IMG/VR virus record: IMGVR_UViG_3300028874_000370
Location: 38,154 to 102,153 of that record
DNA: 64,000 nt
Direction: 5' to 3' (one strand)
DNA from: a virus
Part shown: piece after piece, positions 4,022 through 38,185 of the stretch
Layout of the letters: each line of letters opens with the position of its first letter
Position numbering within the stretch: position 1 is the stretch's first letter
The notes under the pieces: generated by a model
Database searches by the model: none
What the model was told of the DNA's origin: nothing
What the model saw: only the letters and a program-made list of their open reading frames with translations
Translations under genes and position numbers: made by a program

Positions 4022-5092
4022 TTATTCCTCTGTATTAGCTTGTTGTGTTTCTACAATCAAAGCATCTAATTCAGCATCAGCTTGTTCGAAATCTTCTTCC
4101 ATCTTTCGGATCGTTGGATGTTTAATCAATTTCTGCCAAATCTCGTCGGTCAGTGTAGATTCTTTAAACTTAAGAACTTCACCATTCACTGTGGTAGTCA
4201 CACTATGTCCTTCTTTTGTTACGATGCCATCAGATTCTAGAAGTTCTACTACTCCGCTAAACTTATTCATTCCTGTTGAATATGGAACTTCAACTTCGGT
4301 CTTAGTCTTTGGTTTAGCAAATCGGGACTTATATGATTCAACTCGCAGTTTGATCCCAATAAAATTAGCATCTTCTTTCAAATTCAATTTAGTAAGTAAT
4401 GCAATTTGTGATGTTGAATATTTCACACCATTAGTAATGGCCCATGGGCCATCGCCTAACATCGGATCTTGTGGATATACCTGATCAGTAAACAACATCG
4501 GAATATCAAGACGCGCAAAACGTGCTACCAATGAACGAAGTAAATGTTTTTTAAGCTTTGCAGATTGGCCTTGATCACCAGTCTGAACACCCTTTTCAAA
4601 TTTCTCATCTTCACCAGCAGTTAATAGATTGCCAAGTGAGTCTAATACTATAAGAACATCGAGTGCATCTTTGTTGTAACGTCCAAATTCTTTTTCATAT
4701 CCAACCAAAAAGTCCGAAAGAACTTTAGTCACATCTTGAATAGTAACGACTTGGATGTATTGAAGTTTATCTGGTGAAATATCAACACCAATTTTCTTCA
4801 TGAATACCGGATCTAATGCATTTTCTGAATCAATAACTAAAATGAAAGCGCCTTCGTTCTGTGCTTCGCGAATTGCATTACATGTTAGAAATGATTTACC
4901 TGATGCTGAAGGACCAGCGAATAGCGATAGGCGACCTGCTGGATATCCGCGAATATATGAACCGGATAAGACTCGATTGATCGCATAATTGCCTGTTGAA
5001 TACCACTTCTTTGGCGGTTGGAAAATAGTAGAAACATTCTCCATTTTGTCCAACTTTTTTCTGAACTCTTTTAAGAAACTAAAGGTTGCCAT
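4022..5092 (-). CDS. uvsX: UvsX/RecA-like recombinase
   Basis: GPSASGKS Walker A, IDSENA, VLDSLGNL, KSRFAKP. Confidence 0.93.
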   Translation of the reverse strand: MATFSFLKEFRKKLDKMENVSTIFQPPKKWYSTGNYAINRVLSGSYIRGYPAGRLSLFAGPSASGKSFLTCNAIREAQNEGAFILVIDSENALDPVFMKKIGVDISPDKLQYIQVVTIQDVTKVLSDFLVGYEKEFGRYNKDALDVLIVLDSLGNLLTAGEDEKFEKGVQTGDQGQSAKLKKHLLRSLVARFARLDIPMLFTDQVYPQDPMLGDGPWAITNGVKYSTSQIALLTKLNLKEDANFIGIKLRVESYKSRFAKPKTKTEVEVPYSTGMNKFSGVVELLESDGIVTKEGHSVTTTVNGEVLKFKESTLTDEIWQKLIKHPTIRKMEEDFEQADAELDALIVETQQANTEE

Positions 5093-6507: not shown

Positions 6508-7698
6508 TTATTGGATTTTACATTTTGTTTGGCCATCAACATTAGTCATAACAAGTTCTACGTAATCTGTTTCTTTGCCTAACCAAGGCATAGAAATTCT
6601 AGAATACTGATCCATCACAGCGACCATAGGTACACACTTATCTGTGCGGGCCTTTTGGCGACCCGCCAATTCTTTACGAGTGATAGGAAACAAAACACAA
6701 ACAATGTCATATCCGCTTTTTTTGGCCTCATAGATATAATCACCCCGAGCATCACTTGATACATTAGTGTTATCTACTATGATTGACACATTAGATTTAA
6801 CAAGATCTCGGAATATTCTATCAGCGTATTGCCTAAATGGTCCGCGATGCTTGCCACAATATGCAAAGGCTCTTCCATATGCATCAACAGGATTACTTCC
6901 TTTGACTCCATTATCCGCAGCGTATGAAAGCCTAGAGGCATCTAATGAAAAATATGATGCTCCATCTTTAATTTTTTTATCAGAATATGTTGACTTACCG
7001 GATCCAGAGGCCCCGATTAATACATACAGTTTAGGAGCACTACACCCAAGAACTTGAAGATCAGATCTCTTAAGAGAATAATTAGCTTTAAGTTTTTTAA
7101 TCCCATCAACAAAAGCAAATACTTCGGCCAAGTTCTTTTCATGATCATCCGAAATCCGACCAGATTGATCGGAAATAATTTGGTCATAATATACATTAGC
7201 TAACTCACCAAATTCAAATGGCTCTGAATCAAGTTGATTGCGAATATGCTGCAAATCTTCTGGAGTATCCAGATCATGAGGCAAATGGTTTTCTATGATC
7301 CATGAGATCACATAGATATCAGAATCTTTAAGACCAAATGTCTTCTTCAATTGTTTCCATTTGTTCCAATTCTCGACAGCGTATTCTTCCCACAAACGAG
7401 CAGACTTATGTTCATGGCCACCAAACGAAGTATATGTTCCTCGAGATTCTGAAGTCTTTGTTTTAGCTGCACTAGGTTTTCCCGTATCATGAAAGACCAC
7501 GGATAGAAAGGTCAAGGCTTGCTGGCGGTCAGTCCGATGTTGAGCAAAGTTCTCGAAGTAATGATCTAAGATCATTTCAACATGTTTTGAGACAGAAGAT
7601 TCCCGGTGCCAAGGTGAATTTTCGCATGTGGCTTCCATATCTGTCCACAGCTTAGTAACCTTGAATTCATCAAGGAATTTTTGAAATTTTGGTAACAT
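6508..7698 (-). CDS. HD-domain phosphohydrolase fused to P-loop (polynucleotide kinase-like) kinase
   Basis: PWHRE, FHDTGKP, ENHL, D..GR; then GASGSGKST and VDNTN. Confidence 0.85.
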   Translation of the reverse strand: MLPKFQKFLDEFKVTKLWTDMEATCENSPWHRESSVSKHVEMILDHYFENFAQHRTDRQQALTFLSVVFHDTGKPSAAKTKTSESRGTYTSFGGHEHKSARLWEEYAVENWNKWKQLKKTFGLKDSDIYVISWIIENHLPHDLDTPEDLQHIRNQLDSEPFEFGELANVYYDQIISDQSGRISDDHEKNLAEVFAFVDGIKKLKANYSLKRSDLQVLGCSAPKLYVLIGASGSGKSTYSDKKIKDGASYFSLDASRLSYAADNGVKGSNPVDAYGRAFAYCGKHRGPFRQYADRIFRDLVKSNVSIIVDNTNVSSDARGDYIYEAKKSGYDIVCVLFPITRKELAGRQKARTDKCVPMVAVMDQYSRISMPWLGKETDYVELVMTNVDGQTKCKIQ

Positions 7699-7781
7699 GA
7701 TATCCAACTTATTATTATTTTATTATTGAGGATTGTTGCTCCTCTTTTATTTCATTGTAATGTAGTTGTGGATATCCGTAA

Positions 7782-8126
7782 CTAGATAAATGGATTCCAC
7801 GCAAACATTTTCTTATATCCCGGTTTTACTACATCTTTGTTTCGCCAAGTAAATAACCAAGTTGGTCTACAAGGACTAGTCTTATCAATACAATCCTCAG
7901 GACATGTATACGTAACAGTTTTCTTAAACGGGAGTTCTATCCGGATAAATGTTCCTTCTTGAACAGGCATTCTATGAAAAGCAGAAACATCTCTACCGTC
8001 TTCACTCCGCTTAATCTCTTCTACATCCATATTACGGTGTATTTTACCAAAGGCAAAAATGATCCCTAGTTTATATACATCGCCATATGCCGATAAATTT
8101 ATATCATATTTCTTAAATAATTTCAT
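7782..8126 (-). CDS. hypothetical protein
   Basis: 114-aa ORF with AAGGA RBS. Confidence 0.65.
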   Translation of the reverse strand: MKLFKKYDINLSAYGDVYKLGIIFAFGKIHRNMDVEEIKRSEDGRDVSAFHRMPVQEGTFIRIELPFKKTVTYTCPEDCIDKTSPCRPTWLFTWRNKDVVKPGYKKMFAWNPFI

Positions 8127-8137
8127 TATAGTTCCTT

Positions 8138-9664
8138 TTAAAATATCATTGGTGCAGCTTCATTACCATAAGGATCATCGCTATCAAGAAGATCATCATC
8201 CTCAGTCGAATACATCATCTCAAATACTGATTCTTCATAATCCGCTGCTTTCTTTAATACATTCATAACAATCAACATGGCTGCTACTAAGTCATCTGTT
8301 GCACCGGGTTTAGCATGATATGTTGTCTTACCATTCGAAATATAATTCTTGAGTTCCATCAATAGTAATTCAGAATTAACAGTGAGACCTCCAGTAGTTT
8401 TTTCTATTAATCGTTTTAATTCTAGGCAAGCTAGTAATTTGGATTTGGCTGAAGTATTCATTCCAATCCGATCATCATCGCTAAGCAGGACGGCGTCAGG
8501 GAACTTGTCTTCATTTTGGTATAGTGCAACAATAGAAGCACCAACGCCGTTGTTCTCGAAGCTCCAGTAGACCTCAGGGGACTTTCCTCGATCAGTCTTA
8601 GGTGCCTTTAGATAAGTCAGTATCCATTTGATTCTGGCATACAATTGTTGCGGTGTAATTGTATTAGATCTAAATTCAGCGAATTGTTTCATTGATGGAA
8701 ATTCAAGAACTTGGATAGTCGAATAATCCCCAGAGACGCCTACTGAAATATCAACACCAACATAGTATGAATTTCTGACATCGACCTCACCCCAGAATTT
8801 AAATCCGCGATCTTCCATAATAGGCATAGAAGATTTAAGTTGTTGGAGCTTAATTGAATTAATCAATAATGGATCCGATGATAAAAATTCACATCCATAC
8901 TCTTGGCGAAATTTCAATTCGCCAATTTGGCCAATCATTTTATCTTTGAACGTCGCATCTCTTTCCGGATGTGCATCCCACGAAGTTTCGAATGGAGTAA
9001 ACCCATTTGTCCCAAGAACTGCGCCGCGCCATAAGGTAGCAAACAATTCATTATCGCCATTAGGCGTTGATGAAATAATTAAATCGCCACCAGTTGATAA
9101 TGTTGGCGCCATCGAAGTCCATAAATCTTCCTGAATAGATTTACGAACGAAAGCAATTTCATCAATGAAAATTTTAGCACAAGCAAGACCACGACCAGTA
9201 TTAGCTGTTGTCGCTTGTGATATCATTCTAGAATCATTATCAAATTCTATTGAAGTCTTATTGTAGCTCTTAACACCCGGTTTCAGCCAATGTGGAAGTT
9301 CTTCATACGCATATTGAATTCTCTGCATAATTTCAATAGCATTACTGAATTTATTACTAGCAACAAGAACCAATTTATCCGAATGGAAAATAGCAAACCA
9401 AAAGAAATAAATTGCAACAGTCAATGTTTTACCTTGTTGACGCCCAACTTTCAGAATATTAAATTTATTGGCATGCAGTTGTTTAACCATATCTATTTGA
9501 TATGGGTATAAAATAAACTTTACTTTCCCTCTTACCGGATGTTGTATGTAAACATAATTCTCCATAAAGTACACAGGATCTTTCTTACACTTAACTAATT
9601 CTTGGATTAATTCTGGTGTATATTCAGAAAGAGCATTTGGCGCTTTTAAATAATCATTCGCCAT
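8138..9664 (-). CDS. terL: terminase large subunit (T4 gp17-like)
   Basis: GRQQGKT, IFIDE, SSTPNG, GVDIS/DYST nuclease motifs, DDLV. Confidence 0.95.
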   Translation of the reverse strand: MANDYLKAPNALSEYTPELIQELVKCKKDPVYFMENYVYIQHPVRGKVKFILYPYQIDMVKQLHANKFNILKVGRQQGKTLTVAIYFFWFAIFHSDKLVLVASNKFSNAIEIMQRIQYAYEELPHWLKPGVKSYNKTSIEFDNDSRMISQATTANTGRGLACAKIFIDEIAFVRKSIQEDLWTSMAPTLSTGGDLIISSTPNGDNELFATLWRGAVLGTNGFTPFETSWDAHPERDATFKDKMIGQIGELKFRQEYGCEFLSSDPLLINSIKLQQLKSSMPIMEDRGFKFWGEVDVRNSYYVGVDISVGVSGDYSTIQVLEFPSMKQFAEFRSNTITPQQLYARIKWILTYLKAPKTDRGKSPEVYWSFENNGVGASIVALYQNEDKFPDAVLLSDDDRIGMNTSAKSKLLACLELKRLIEKTTGGLTVNSELLLMELKNYISNGKTTYHAKPGATDDLVAAMLIVMNVLKKAADYEESVFEMMYSTEDDDLLDSDDPYGNEAAPMIF

Positions 9665-10406
9665 TATCTAAGTCCCACTCAAACTCTCTATACCAGGCTT
9701 TCTGTCCAAGTACAGCCATCATATTTTTTTTGAATTCTTGTCCTCTTTCAGGATGCTCATCCCATCTAATATGACACTGTTCCAATATCGAACTATCACA
9801 CAGTGTTTTAGCGATTTCATCATCATCAGACATAGTAGATAAGATTGCAACACTGCCACCTCGGTCATAAGTTAAACCAATATTACCTAGTAAATATTGC
9901 TGAACAGATTTCCTAACAAATAAAAATTCATCAAAAATTAAATATGATACTTTAATTCCTCTACCAAAATTATCGGAGGAGCATGCATTAGATATAATCC
10001 TGGAACCATTAAAAAATTCCAGTTTTTGCATTGTATTAATATTTACTTTTGGAATTAACCATGTTGGCAATTCCTTGAGTGCGATTCTAATAATGCTCAT
10101 TATGTGTTGTGCATTATTGACATTGATTGTGCCAATCAAGATATTTTGGCTGGGCCAGAAGATTGCTAACCAAAGAGAAAATAGTGCAGAGATAAGAGTT
10201 TTACCAACCTGTCTTGGCCCAATAGAAATAATATTGCCACGATGCATAGCATTGATTAAATCAATTTGGTATGGGTATAGATTGATAGACACCAATCCAT
10301 TAATTGGATGTTGAAACTTGCAATACTTGTTGATGAAATAAACTGGGTCTGTTTCGCAGAGGAAAAACTCATTAATAAGTTCTTCAGAATACCCTATTGG
10401 TAGCAT
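9654..10406 (-). CDS. stand-alone terminase ATPase-domain paralog (no nuclease domain)
   Basis: DPVYF, LYPYQ, PRQVGKT, IFDE, WDEHPER; ends at WYREF, matching TerL FRQEY. Confidence 0.85.
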   Translation of the reverse strand: MLPIGYSEELINEFFLCETDPVYFINKYCKFQHPINGLVSINLYPYQIDLINAMHRGNIISIGPRQVGKTLISALFSLWLAIFWPSQNILIGTINVNNAQHIMSIIRIALKELPTWLIPKVNINTMQKLEFFNGSRIISNACSSDNFGRGIKVSYLIFDEFLFVRKSVQQYLLGNIGLTYDRGGSVAILSTMSDDDEIAKTLCDSSILEQCHIRWDEHPERGQEFKKNMMAVLGQKAWYREFEWDLDNGE

Positions 10407-10441
10407 ATAAATAAATCCTTTTAGATAGATTTATTTATATG
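10404..10441 (-). promoter_or_regulatory. 14-bp hairpin sequestering the ATG, with late promoter TATAAATA in its 5' arm
   Basis: catataaataaatc (10404-10417) and gatttatttatatg (10428-10441). Confidence 0.65.
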
Positions 10442-10523
10442 GCAGGAAAGTGATGTCAAAAATTGATGTACATTCCAAAAATATCAAGTTATAATTTCTT
10501 TAACTTAAACATGGAGTTCAATC

Positions 10524-10658
10524 ATGAAAGAATTAAAAGCCATTGCTCGTGACTTCTGTCTTGGTGTTGGTATTGTTGTAGTCATTGCTTCGATTGGCAA
10601 TCAACTGGATCTGTGGAATGCAACCTTCATGATTTGCTTCCATCATTTGACTTGTTAA
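10524..10658 (+). CDS. small hydrophobic protein (44 aa), the only convincing plus-strand gene
   Basis: TGTACA-N17-TATAAT (10467-10495), GGAG RBS, MKELKAIARDFCLGVGIVVVIASIGNQLDLWNATFMICFHHLTC, downstream hairpin at 10662-10692. Confidence 0.65.
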   Translation: MKELKAIARDFCLGVGIVVVIASIGNQLDLWNATFMICFHHLTC

Positions 10659-10709
10659 AATAAATTCTAATCAAAGCATTCGATTAGAATTTCATTTCAT
10701 TACTTTCAT

Positions 10710-10930
10710 TTATTTTCCACTTTTCTTTTTTAAACGGTTCATCAGAGTGTCATACTCTTTATGTGCGTCATCTGTGATTTTGACTTTATCGATTGCGGGG
10801 ATGCCTTCTTTTTAGTACTGACAATCTTACTGGCATTTTTACTGACTTTAGCTAAATATTCTGGAAGATGGGCTTCAAGATACTGGTATAACATATATGC
10901 TCTTAATCCGCTAGCAACTTTAGCCTCATG
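10710..10930 (-). pseudogene. frameshifted C-terminal remnant of an unrelated gene
   Basis: out-of-frame protein-like stretches EHEAKVASGLRAYMLYQYLEAHLPEYLAK... and GIPAIDKVKITDDAHKEYDTLMNRLKKKSGK*. Confidence 0.4.
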
Positions 10931-11313
10931 TTCTGTTTGGTTTGCTGTACTATGCCAATCTTAAACATATCTGGAAGATGTTGATATGCGATTTTTATAA
11001 TTTCCATCATGTAAACTGATGCATGAAAATTATGTGCGCCTAATAAAATATTTTTTTCGTAGTAAAATATCGCATACCAAAGAGCAAATAAACATTCAAT
11101 TGTCGTCTTACCAAACATTCTTGGAGCCTCAATGATAGCATTTCCTTCTTGCATTGCACGAATCATTGCTATATGAGAGTCATTCAAATTAATAAAATCT
11201 AAACCTTTATCTCTATTTACTATTTTGCAATACTTTGAAATGAAGTGAACTGGGTCAGCTTGACATTTGCGAAGCTCATTTATTGGCAGTCTTGTGTATT
11301 CTATATTTTCCAT
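10903..11313 (-). CDS. second, shorter terminase ATPase N-terminal paralog (possibly a pseudogene)
   Basis: KCQADPVHF, APRMFGKT, IAYQHLP; stops before Walker B. Confidence 0.75.
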   Translation of the reverse strand: MENIEYTRLPINELRKCQADPVHFISKYCKIVNRDKGLDFINLNDSHIAMIRAMQEGNAIIEAPRMFGKTTIECLFALWYAIFYYEKNILLGAHNFHASVYMMEIIKIAYQHLPDMFKIGIVQQTKQNMRLKLLAD

Positions 11314-11342
11314 AAACAATCCTTAAAAAGATTATTTATGGA
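11309..11342 (-). promoter_or_regulatory. start-codon-sequestering hairpin with CATAAATA late-promoter variant
   Basis: minus-strand tccataaataatc...gattgtttatgga with one G-U wobble. Confidence 0.55.
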
Positions 11343-37754: not shown

Positions 37755-38185
37755 TTGTCTGAAGCTTCTCCAAGCATTTTCAAAAGTTCTGTTCGATCAG
37801 CAATTATTAAATTTTGATTAACTGTTCCTGGTGTTGTCCCATCGATTTTCATTTTTAATTTATTTTGCCTGATAGTAGCTCTTGATTTAATAGAGTCCAA
37901 TGCAATATTTAAATATTGTGCAGCCACTTCAGCATTCCGAGCAGCAAAACGAGGATCAACTTCAGAGACCATTTGCGTTTGTTGTTCAAATGCATCTATT
38001 GCATATCCATATACTGTAGCAAGCTGAGAAGCAACAGCTAAATCTTCTTCATTGATTAATGATGAAGTGTCAGTGTCATTAGTCGAGACTATTTCAGTCA
38101 TTGGTTTAGGATCTTGGACTTTAGAAATAGTTGTTCCGGGTTCTATACCAAATACAGACTCTAGATGATTATCTGTTAATTTCAT
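37751..38185 (-). CDS. putative terminase small subunit
   Basis: helical core PRFAARNAEVA and C-terminal NQNLIIADRTELLK, similar in layout to T4-like gp16. Confidence 0.5.
   Translation of the reverse strand: MKLTDNHLESVFGIEPGTTISKVQDPKPMTEIVSTNDTDTSSLINEEDLAVASQLATVYGYAIDAFEQQTQMVSEVDPRFAARNAEVAAQYLNIALDSIKSRATIRQNKLKMKIDGTTPGTVNQNLIIADRTELLKMLGEASDK

Follow-up and report, generated by a model that had tools for sequence, protein, structure and literature searches.

We analysed a 64,000-nucleotide (nt) stretch of viral DNA, referred to here as the window, which comprises positions 38,154 to 102,153 of the IMG/VR virus record IMGVR_UViG_3300028874_000370. Within it the gene for the large terminase subunit, TerL, is preceded by two paralogs of its own ATPase domain, P1 and P2. 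The source record is 102 kb long and about 30% complete. The TerLs closest to that of the window are those of the jumbo phages Xoo-sp13, XacN1, RsoM2USA, RAS14 and Phosso, and the locus, a late operon for packaging, belongs to an uncultivated jumbo phage from peat, kin of XacN1, Xoo-sp13, RsoM2USA and the Rak2-like phages. The three genes, and the hairpins found at the starts of P1 and P2, are as follows.

8138-9664, minus strand: TerL, 508 amino acids (aa), with ATPase and RNaseH-like nuclease domains (Pfam Terminase_6N and Terminase_6C, PF17289)
9654-10406, minus strand: P1, 250 aa, a TerL ATPase-domain paralog that lacks the nuclease
10903-11313, minus strand: P2, a truncated paralog of about 136 aa from the ATG supported by a Shine-Dalgarno (SD) sequence, with an in-frame TTG at 11319
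10403-10443, minus strand: P1 lock hairpin, stem of about 14 bp, -14.3 kcal/mol, z -6.8, matched by none of 200 shuffles
11309-11342, minus strand: P2 lock hairpin, 15-bp stem with one G-U pair, -16.4 kcal/mol, z -4.0, matched by none of 200 shuffles

T4 gp17 aligned with the window TerL over its whole length (E 1e-56), and all motifs of the ASCE (additional strand, catalytic E) ATPases, namely the Q motif, Walker A, arginine finger, Walker B and C-motif, are present in both TerL and P1. P1 aligned with TerL residues 15-256 at 39% identity (E 1e-56). Its Q motif is YPYQ, Walker A is PRQVGKT and Walker B is LIFDEF, and LSTM stands at the position of SSTP in TerL. The catalytic set is intact, comprising the P-loop Arg, Walker A Lys, arginine finger (R149), Walker B Asp-Glu and the Ser-Thr C-motif. 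The P1 C-terminus falls at the boundary between ATPase and nuclease domains, and its TGA (9654-9656) lies 8 nt past the TerL ATG (9664-9662), which produces an 11-nt overlap. An initial annotation of this DNA had called P1 a divergent copy of the TerL ATPase domain that keeps Walker A and B, ends at the domain boundary and overlaps TerL by 11 nt, and each of these points was confirmed.

An AlphaFold2 model of P1 (mean predicted local distance difference test score, pLDDT, 87.8) had as its top fold match 2O0H, the ATPase domain of T4 gp17, with a template modelling (TM) score of 0.86. P1 thus shares the fold, motif order and Terminase_6N family of gp17 (2O0H, 3CPE); it differs in being a separate gene without a nuclease domain, and the first roughly 90 residues of gp17 are missing both in P1 and in the window TerL. 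A domain search found no RNaseH-like nuclease domain in P1 or P2, so neither is a terminase in the full sense. A frameshift fusion of P1 to TerL was rejected by inspection, as there is no slippery site within the 11-nt overlap. Recent gene conversion from TerL as an explanation for the intact motifs of P1 was also rejected, because its own TerL, at 39% identity, is no closer to P1 than foreign TerLs are (34-39%). A word-based protein search with P1 returned only P1 itself and one 302-aa protein (31% identity), and no match was found when P1 was the query in a scan of close relatives in IMG/VR.

P2 is 30% identical to TerL residues 14-141 (E 2e-19) and 47% identical to P1 (E 2e-31), of which it is the sister in the phylogenetic tree (Shimodaira-Hasegawa-like approximate likelihood ratio test, SH-aLRT, 98). 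It spans N-domain positions 6-135 (about 14-138 of TerL). Walker A is present as PRMFGKT; the Q motif, arginine finger and Walker B are absent. The earlier description of P2 as a shorter second copy with Walker A only was therefore correct.

The hairpins place a promoter-like motif opposite each start codon. At P1, TATAAATA (10432-10439) pairs with a segment that has the ATG (10404-10406) at its end, and an SD-like AAAGGA lies at the junction of the loop and the 3′ arm. At P2, the 5′ arm contains CATAAATA (11333-11340), and the 3′ arm contains the ATG (11311-11313) together with part of the SD. The P2 stem differs from the P1 stem by the deletion of one base pair on both arms and by one G-U pair. 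Since the base pair was lost on both arms together, the hairpin appears to have been kept up since the P1/P2 duplication. A strong hairpin was present at 2 of the 27 ATAAATA motifs in the window, those at the P1 and P2 starts only. Nine of the ten coding-strand TATAAATA motifs are intergenic, and seven are 14-60 nt before a long open reading frame (ORF); with this placement, the motif behaves like a T4 late promoter. The initial annotation had both start codons locked in hairpins with a late promoter in the 5′ arm and a G-U wobble in one. Both hairpins were indeed significant; the motif at P2 proved to be CATAAATA, not TATAAATA.

In RNA reading through from upstream, these hairpins would mask the P1 and P2 starts. 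RNA begun a few bases past the late-promoter motif would lack the 5′ arm and would be translatable, by the logic of T4 gene e. The principle of this translational lock, with T4 gene e and I-TevI as examples, is established (PMC3014915). The window resembles these cases in having a late-promoter motif in the 5′ arm and a hidden SD or start at both P1 and P2; it differs in that the device, here predicted from the sequence, is on packaging genes, not on a lysin or homing endonuclease gene. The TerL start has no significant hairpin (z +0.3) and no promoter motif of its own. As its ATG is 8 nt before the P1 stop and it carries no signal of its own, TerL is most probably translated from the late mRNA of P1, by coupling to the upstream gene.

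Strong start hairpins (z -4 to -7) with a promoter-like motif, CTATA(A/T)A(T)A, in the 5′ arm were also seen in relatives (loci compared are numbered with the prefix L). They were found at the TerL starts of XacN1, RAS14 (L022:4909-4970), L013 (6321-6382) and L014 (6335-6396); the two XacN1 hairpins (L005:4125-4186 and 4903-4964) are at the starts of TerL and ORF256. Because relatives carry the lock on TerL itself, it appears to be clade-wide for packaging genes.

We then surveyed relatives for paralogs, as the initial annotation had proposed, and found them widely. A paralog consisting of the N domain only is encoded directly upstream of TerL in Xanthomonas phage Xoo-sp13, Serratia phage BF, Pectobacterium phage CBB, Cronobacter phage GAP32, XbC2 and Yen9-04. 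Among IMG/VR loci that were informative (TerL at least 48% identical to that of the window, with at least 1 kb of upstream flank), 11 of the 15 in the TerL clade of the window contain a paralog, and two of them, L032 and L033, have two copies as the window does. Gene 242 of Xoo-sp13 (L004:4241-4936), a 'terminase small subunit' in GenBank, is a TerL ATPase-domain paralog in which both Walker A (RESGTS) and Walker B (LLDV) are degenerate. Labels such as 'terminase large subunit' or 'terminase small subunit' on these genes are misleading. In the window, BF and L032 the end of the paralog gene overlaps the TerL start by 11 nt; the overlap is 14 nt in CBB and GAP32, and in L036, L041, L046 and XbC2 stop and start are 1 nt apart.

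Two further ORFs upstream of TerL were considered. XacN1 ORF256, which occupies the paralog slot, was rejected as a hidden paralog, as BLAST, hidden Markov model (HMM) search and hhalign gave no similarity and five related genomes contained no homologue of it. A 161-aa ORF of Stenotrophomonas phage RAS14 (L022:4421-4906) matches the paralog motif order (Q motif, R..G.S, GR...YE); its match to the paralog profile was not significant (hhalign probability 0.4%, E 0.14), and it may be a hyper-diverged family member.

In more distant relatives TerL itself was often split or interrupted. The split, interrupted or oversized genes are those of L086, L087, L092, L104, L093-L095, L105, L091/L102, L049, L097 and Atu_ph07 (L024:3953-6144). 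Some have the first ~79 or ~163 N-domain positions in a separate ORF, and others have the ATPase and nuclease domains as separate ORFs 0.8-3 kb apart. In oversized TerL ORFs (664 and 893 aa) extra sequence, perhaps an intein or homing element, is inserted close to N-domain position 75.

The paralogs evolve far faster than the TerLs beside them. Identities of TerL and paralog, respectively, were 98.6% and 56.6% between L013 and L014, 96.5% and 58.2% between CBB and GAP32, and 92.9% and 46.9% between BF and Yen9-04. The nonsynonymous rate (dN) was 0.32-0.44 for paralogs and 0.01-0.04 for TerL, and paralog protein divergence was 10-40 times that of TerL. The ratio of dN to the synonymous rate (dS) was nevertheless 0.22-0.36 for the paralogs, and their ORFs are intact. 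The paralogs are therefore coding and constrained by purifying selection, and do not evolve neutrally, which answers the dN/dS check suggested at the outset. The initial idea of selected, late-timed expression is likewise supported. In a maximum likelihood (ML) tree all paralogs formed one group (SH-aLRT 91-93), with subclades that mirror the TerL subclades. Trees with lineage-specific origins were not rejected by the approximately unbiased (AU) test (p 0.38 and 0.25), long branches being involved; a single origin of the paralogs is favoured by the tree but not proven.

To examine which residues the family keeps, a profile built from the paralogs was run against 1.84 billion representative proteins, and the best 150 clusters (50% identity) were analysed. 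These comprised 64 full-length TerLs, 63 of which have all catalytic residues, and 74 N-domain-only proteins of at most 330 aa. Of the 74, 41 have lost the Walker A Lys or the Walker B Asp/Glu, all of them catalytic, and because of this loss these 41 cannot be fragments of real terminases. Retention among the 41 was as follows.

P-loop Gly (G78): kept in 100%
Gly after the arginine finger (G159): kept in 100%
P-loop Arg: kept in 93%
Q motif: kept in 83%
Arginine finger: kept in 80%
Walker B Asp: kept in 78%
Walker A Lys (Lys79): kept in 20%
Catalytic Glu (Glu169): mostly replaced

The conserved Arg (R158 in TerL, R149 in P1), 11 residues before the catalytic Glu, aligns with R139 of P74-26, which is a trans-acting arginine finger (PMC5389665). 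The exceptions that retain every catalytic residue are P1 and the proximal copy of L032.

The slot occupied by the paralog is, in T4, that of the small terminase subunit, TerS, which was itself not detected. The gp16 model (PF11053) matched neither the window record nor any of five complete genomes, those of BF, Xoo-sp13, XacN1, RsoM2USA and RAS14, and Terminase_2 (PF03592) had none in the window record, BF, Xoo-sp13, XacN1 or RsoM2USA, RAS14 not having been searched with it. RaK2 has been reported to lack gene 16 (PMC3622015). P1 itself is not a TerS by identity: Pfam and PHROGs gave TerL-type matches only, and its model is an ATPase fold.

The pocket and arginine finger are kept, the Lys and Glu are lost, the gene is coupled to TerL and stands in the TerS slot, and TerS is undetected. 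For these reasons the paralog family may represent a pseudo-subunit, non-catalytic or regulatory, within the packaging motor, a reading that we prefer tentatively and that falls a little short of an even chance. Three functions had been proposed initially, namely immune decoy, packaging-motor regulator and weapon against co-infecting phages; the proposal is partly supported, in that the motor regulator fits best (TerS slot, coupling, arginine finger and TerS undetected). With the P-loop Gly and Arg, Q motif and Walker B Asp kept and the Lys and Glu lost, most family members would bind nucleotide without hydrolysing it. Through the ring interface they would bind to the ATPase domain of TerL, whose active site would receive their trans-acting arginine finger. 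This would tune the ATPase activity of TerL, its assembly or the initiation of packaging, much as gp16 stimulates gp17 in T4. P1 would be an unusual member that could still hydrolyse ATP.

Such paralogs would share with T4 gp16 the gene slot immediately upstream of TerL, late expression and the proposed role of TerL ATPase modulator. They differ from it in having no sequence or fold relation, DNA-binding helix-turn-helix or ring-forming coiled coil, and do not match the Pfam TerS models. Non-catalytic P-loop ATPase paralogs that still donate an arginine finger are found in the F1-ATPase alpha subunit and in inactive clamp-loader subunits. There too the catalytic Lys/Glu is lost while the nucleotide pocket and arginine finger are kept; the comparison is an analogy only, as the paralog-TerL hetero-oligomer is only proposed here.

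Several observations weigh against a role in the motor. No recognisable paralog was found in XacN1, RsoM2USA, Phosso, L037, L042, L047 or L048, nor in any TerL relative at 33-43% identity. Since it is missing from these relatives, the paralog is dispensable, replaceable or diverged past detection. The ATPase fold of P1 is unrelated to known TerS folds, and the mechanism is inapplicable to P2, because P2 has neither an arginine finger nor half of the fold. The motif statistics carry some ascertainment bias, the search profile having been made from paralogs, and very fast evolution with patchy distribution would suit an arms-race gene equally well.

An arms-race origin of this turnover would make the paralogs conflict proteins, that is, TerL mimics co-expressed to blunt Avs (STAND) immunity or to poison the motors of competitors, which we regard as distinctly unlikely. 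In the first form, the mimic of the TerL ATPase would soak up Avs receptors without triggering them, or would mask monomeric TerL until the motor is assembled. Very fast evolution beside a near-invariant TerL and patchy occurrence in close relatives are the pattern of a conflict gene, and most members do without catalysis. The terminase chain of the Avs3-terminase complex 8DGC can be superposed on P1, and a contact between KpAvs2 and the TerL ATPase domain has been predicted (PMC11564622). A TerL look-alike would, however, be expected to activate Avs, and Ksap2, a small phage protein with weak TerL-ATPase-like structure that interacts with the KpAvs2 system (PMC11564622), is an activator. The paralog is also on the same late mRNA as TerL and so would not be ahead of it, and a decoy leaves unexplained both the tight translational coupling and the retention of the arginine finger and P-loop. 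No terminase decoy was described in the literature searched, and this form is improbable.

In the second form the paralog, as a dominant-negative subunit, would poison the terminase rings of co-infecting relatives while sparing the co-evolved TerL of its own phage. Rapid divergence beside a conserved TerL is in line with this, and loss of catalysis with retention of the arginine finger, an interface residue, is how a ring poison would be expected to look. TerLs are nevertheless 93-99% identical where the paralogs differ most, which leaves almost nothing by which to discriminate own from competitor TerL. With no precedent in the literature searched either, a weapon of this kind is very improbable.

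A quite different explanation, in our judgement unlikely but not negligible, is that the paralogs, P2 and the distal copies above all, are by-products with hardly any function or none, left behind as a recombination-prone TerL 5′ end was partly duplicated again and again. TerL genes of the group, Atu_ph07 included, are hot spots for splits, inserts and fragments, and distal copies are cut at different points (N-domain 6-135 in P2, 75-177 in the distal copy of L032); yet length classes and the stop/start coupling to TerL are conserved. Catalytic motifs have decayed, but certain residues are specifically conserved, at 80-100%. Independent lineage-specific duplications are compatible with the data (AU p 0.38 and 0.25) and the gene has been lost from several relatives, whereas the ML tree unites all paralogs in subclades that mirror those of TerL. 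Selection also argues against by-products: dN/dS is 0.22-0.36 and not ~1, dS is near saturation, and ORFs of 155-250 codons have stayed open in AT-rich DNA. P2 itself retains an SD, a promoter motif and a hairpin that a deletion on both sides has kept paired. Absence of function is thus contradicted for the proximal copies, as judged from dN/dS below 1 and selective conservation, and is plausible for P2.

The surroundings of P2 contain the following features.

10742-10894, minus strand: 50-aa Lys-rich ORF directly after P2, within the P2 transcription unit, without a homologue
10656-10699, minus strand: terminator-like hairpin followed by a U run, -14.8 kcal/mol, z -5.4

The hairpin is predicted to end the P2 unit and so to set P2 and the 50-aa ORF apart from the P1-TerL unit. 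A 44-aa hydrophobic ORF (10524-10658, plus strand), for which no homologue search was made, lies between P2 and P1 on the opposite strand; because it also ends at the hairpin, the latter may be a bidirectional terminator. Profile and DNA searches of the ~500 nt between P2 and P1 (10407-10902) revealed no decayed P2 or other TerL remnant. P2 is most likely a tandem duplicate in decay, its role reduced or lost; with an open frame, an SD, a promoter motif and a hairpin still maintained, it may nonetheless have some residual role.

The initial annotation had presented the terminase triplet as an undescribed system, which is wrong. A truncated TerL beside TerL is characteristic of Rak2-like jumbo phages and is also known in phiM12 and phiN3 (PMC5259590, PMC7760394), CBB_274 being described as a truncated large terminase adjoining the full one (Buttimer et al. 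2017, PMC5259590), and the promoter-in-hairpin device is likewise published (PMC3014915). No function for truncated terminases is given in PMC5259590, PMC7760394, the jumbo-phage overview PMC7824862 or the Avs papers. What is new here is the recognition of a large, fast-evolving family, with its spread, selection and motif pattern laid out. The window is unusual in having two copies and, in P1, an intact catalytic site.

We compared P1 with the Rak2-like truncated proteins CBB_274, GAP32_268 and BF_0272, which are collected in phrog_5989. This was the best PHROG for P1 (E 7e-38), P2 (E 3e-27) and the Rak2-like copies, and is non-discriminating, as it also matches the N domains of true TerLs. 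The Rak2-like proteins resemble P1 in containing the N-terminal ATPase part only, in being encoded on the same strand directly upstream of TerL and in evolving fast, and the BF copy shares the 11-nt overlap of the window. They differ in having lost the Walker A Lys and Walker B Asp-Glu that P1 retains; P1 is 22-25% identical to them, and the window has two copies.

The genes on either side of the terminase cluster were also examined. The following ORF adjoins TerL.

7782-8126, minus strand: 114-aa ORF directly downstream of TerL, its position conserved in close relatives (43% identity)

The order TerL, small ORF and gp32-like single-stranded DNA-binding protein is common to the window and its Xoo-sp13/XacN1-type relatives. 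A 399-aa protein (6508-7707, minus strand), retained downstream of TerL in close relatives at 63-66% identity, has a C-terminal AAA_33 or zeta-toxin-like kinase domain and an N-terminal region with many His/Asp motifs, and may be a polynucleotide-kinase-like enzyme. Upstream of P2, ORFs of 252 and 146 aa had no family match in Pfam or PHROGs; an atlas search with the 252-aa ORF gave no usable match, and it bears no convincing likeness to Xoo-sp13 gene 242. A blastn search against phage records yielded a single match, of 77 nt, in RsoM2USA. The source virus was present in peat metagenomes (DNA sequencing runs, all from one year) as a nearly clonal population. Contigs from four runs showed 4 single-contig differences, all within TerL, at a depth too low for comparison between genes, and no structural variants were seen among them.

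Should the paralogs prove to be immune decoys, they would be the first mimics of a terminase. In jumbo phages of the Rak2/XacN1 group, with genomes of 300-400 kb, there is no recognisable small terminase, and the paralog family is a testable candidate for the missing regulator. The family comprises at least 41 distinct 50%-identity clusters with degenerate motifs, and cultured carriers exist in BF, CBB, GAP32 and Xoo-sp13.

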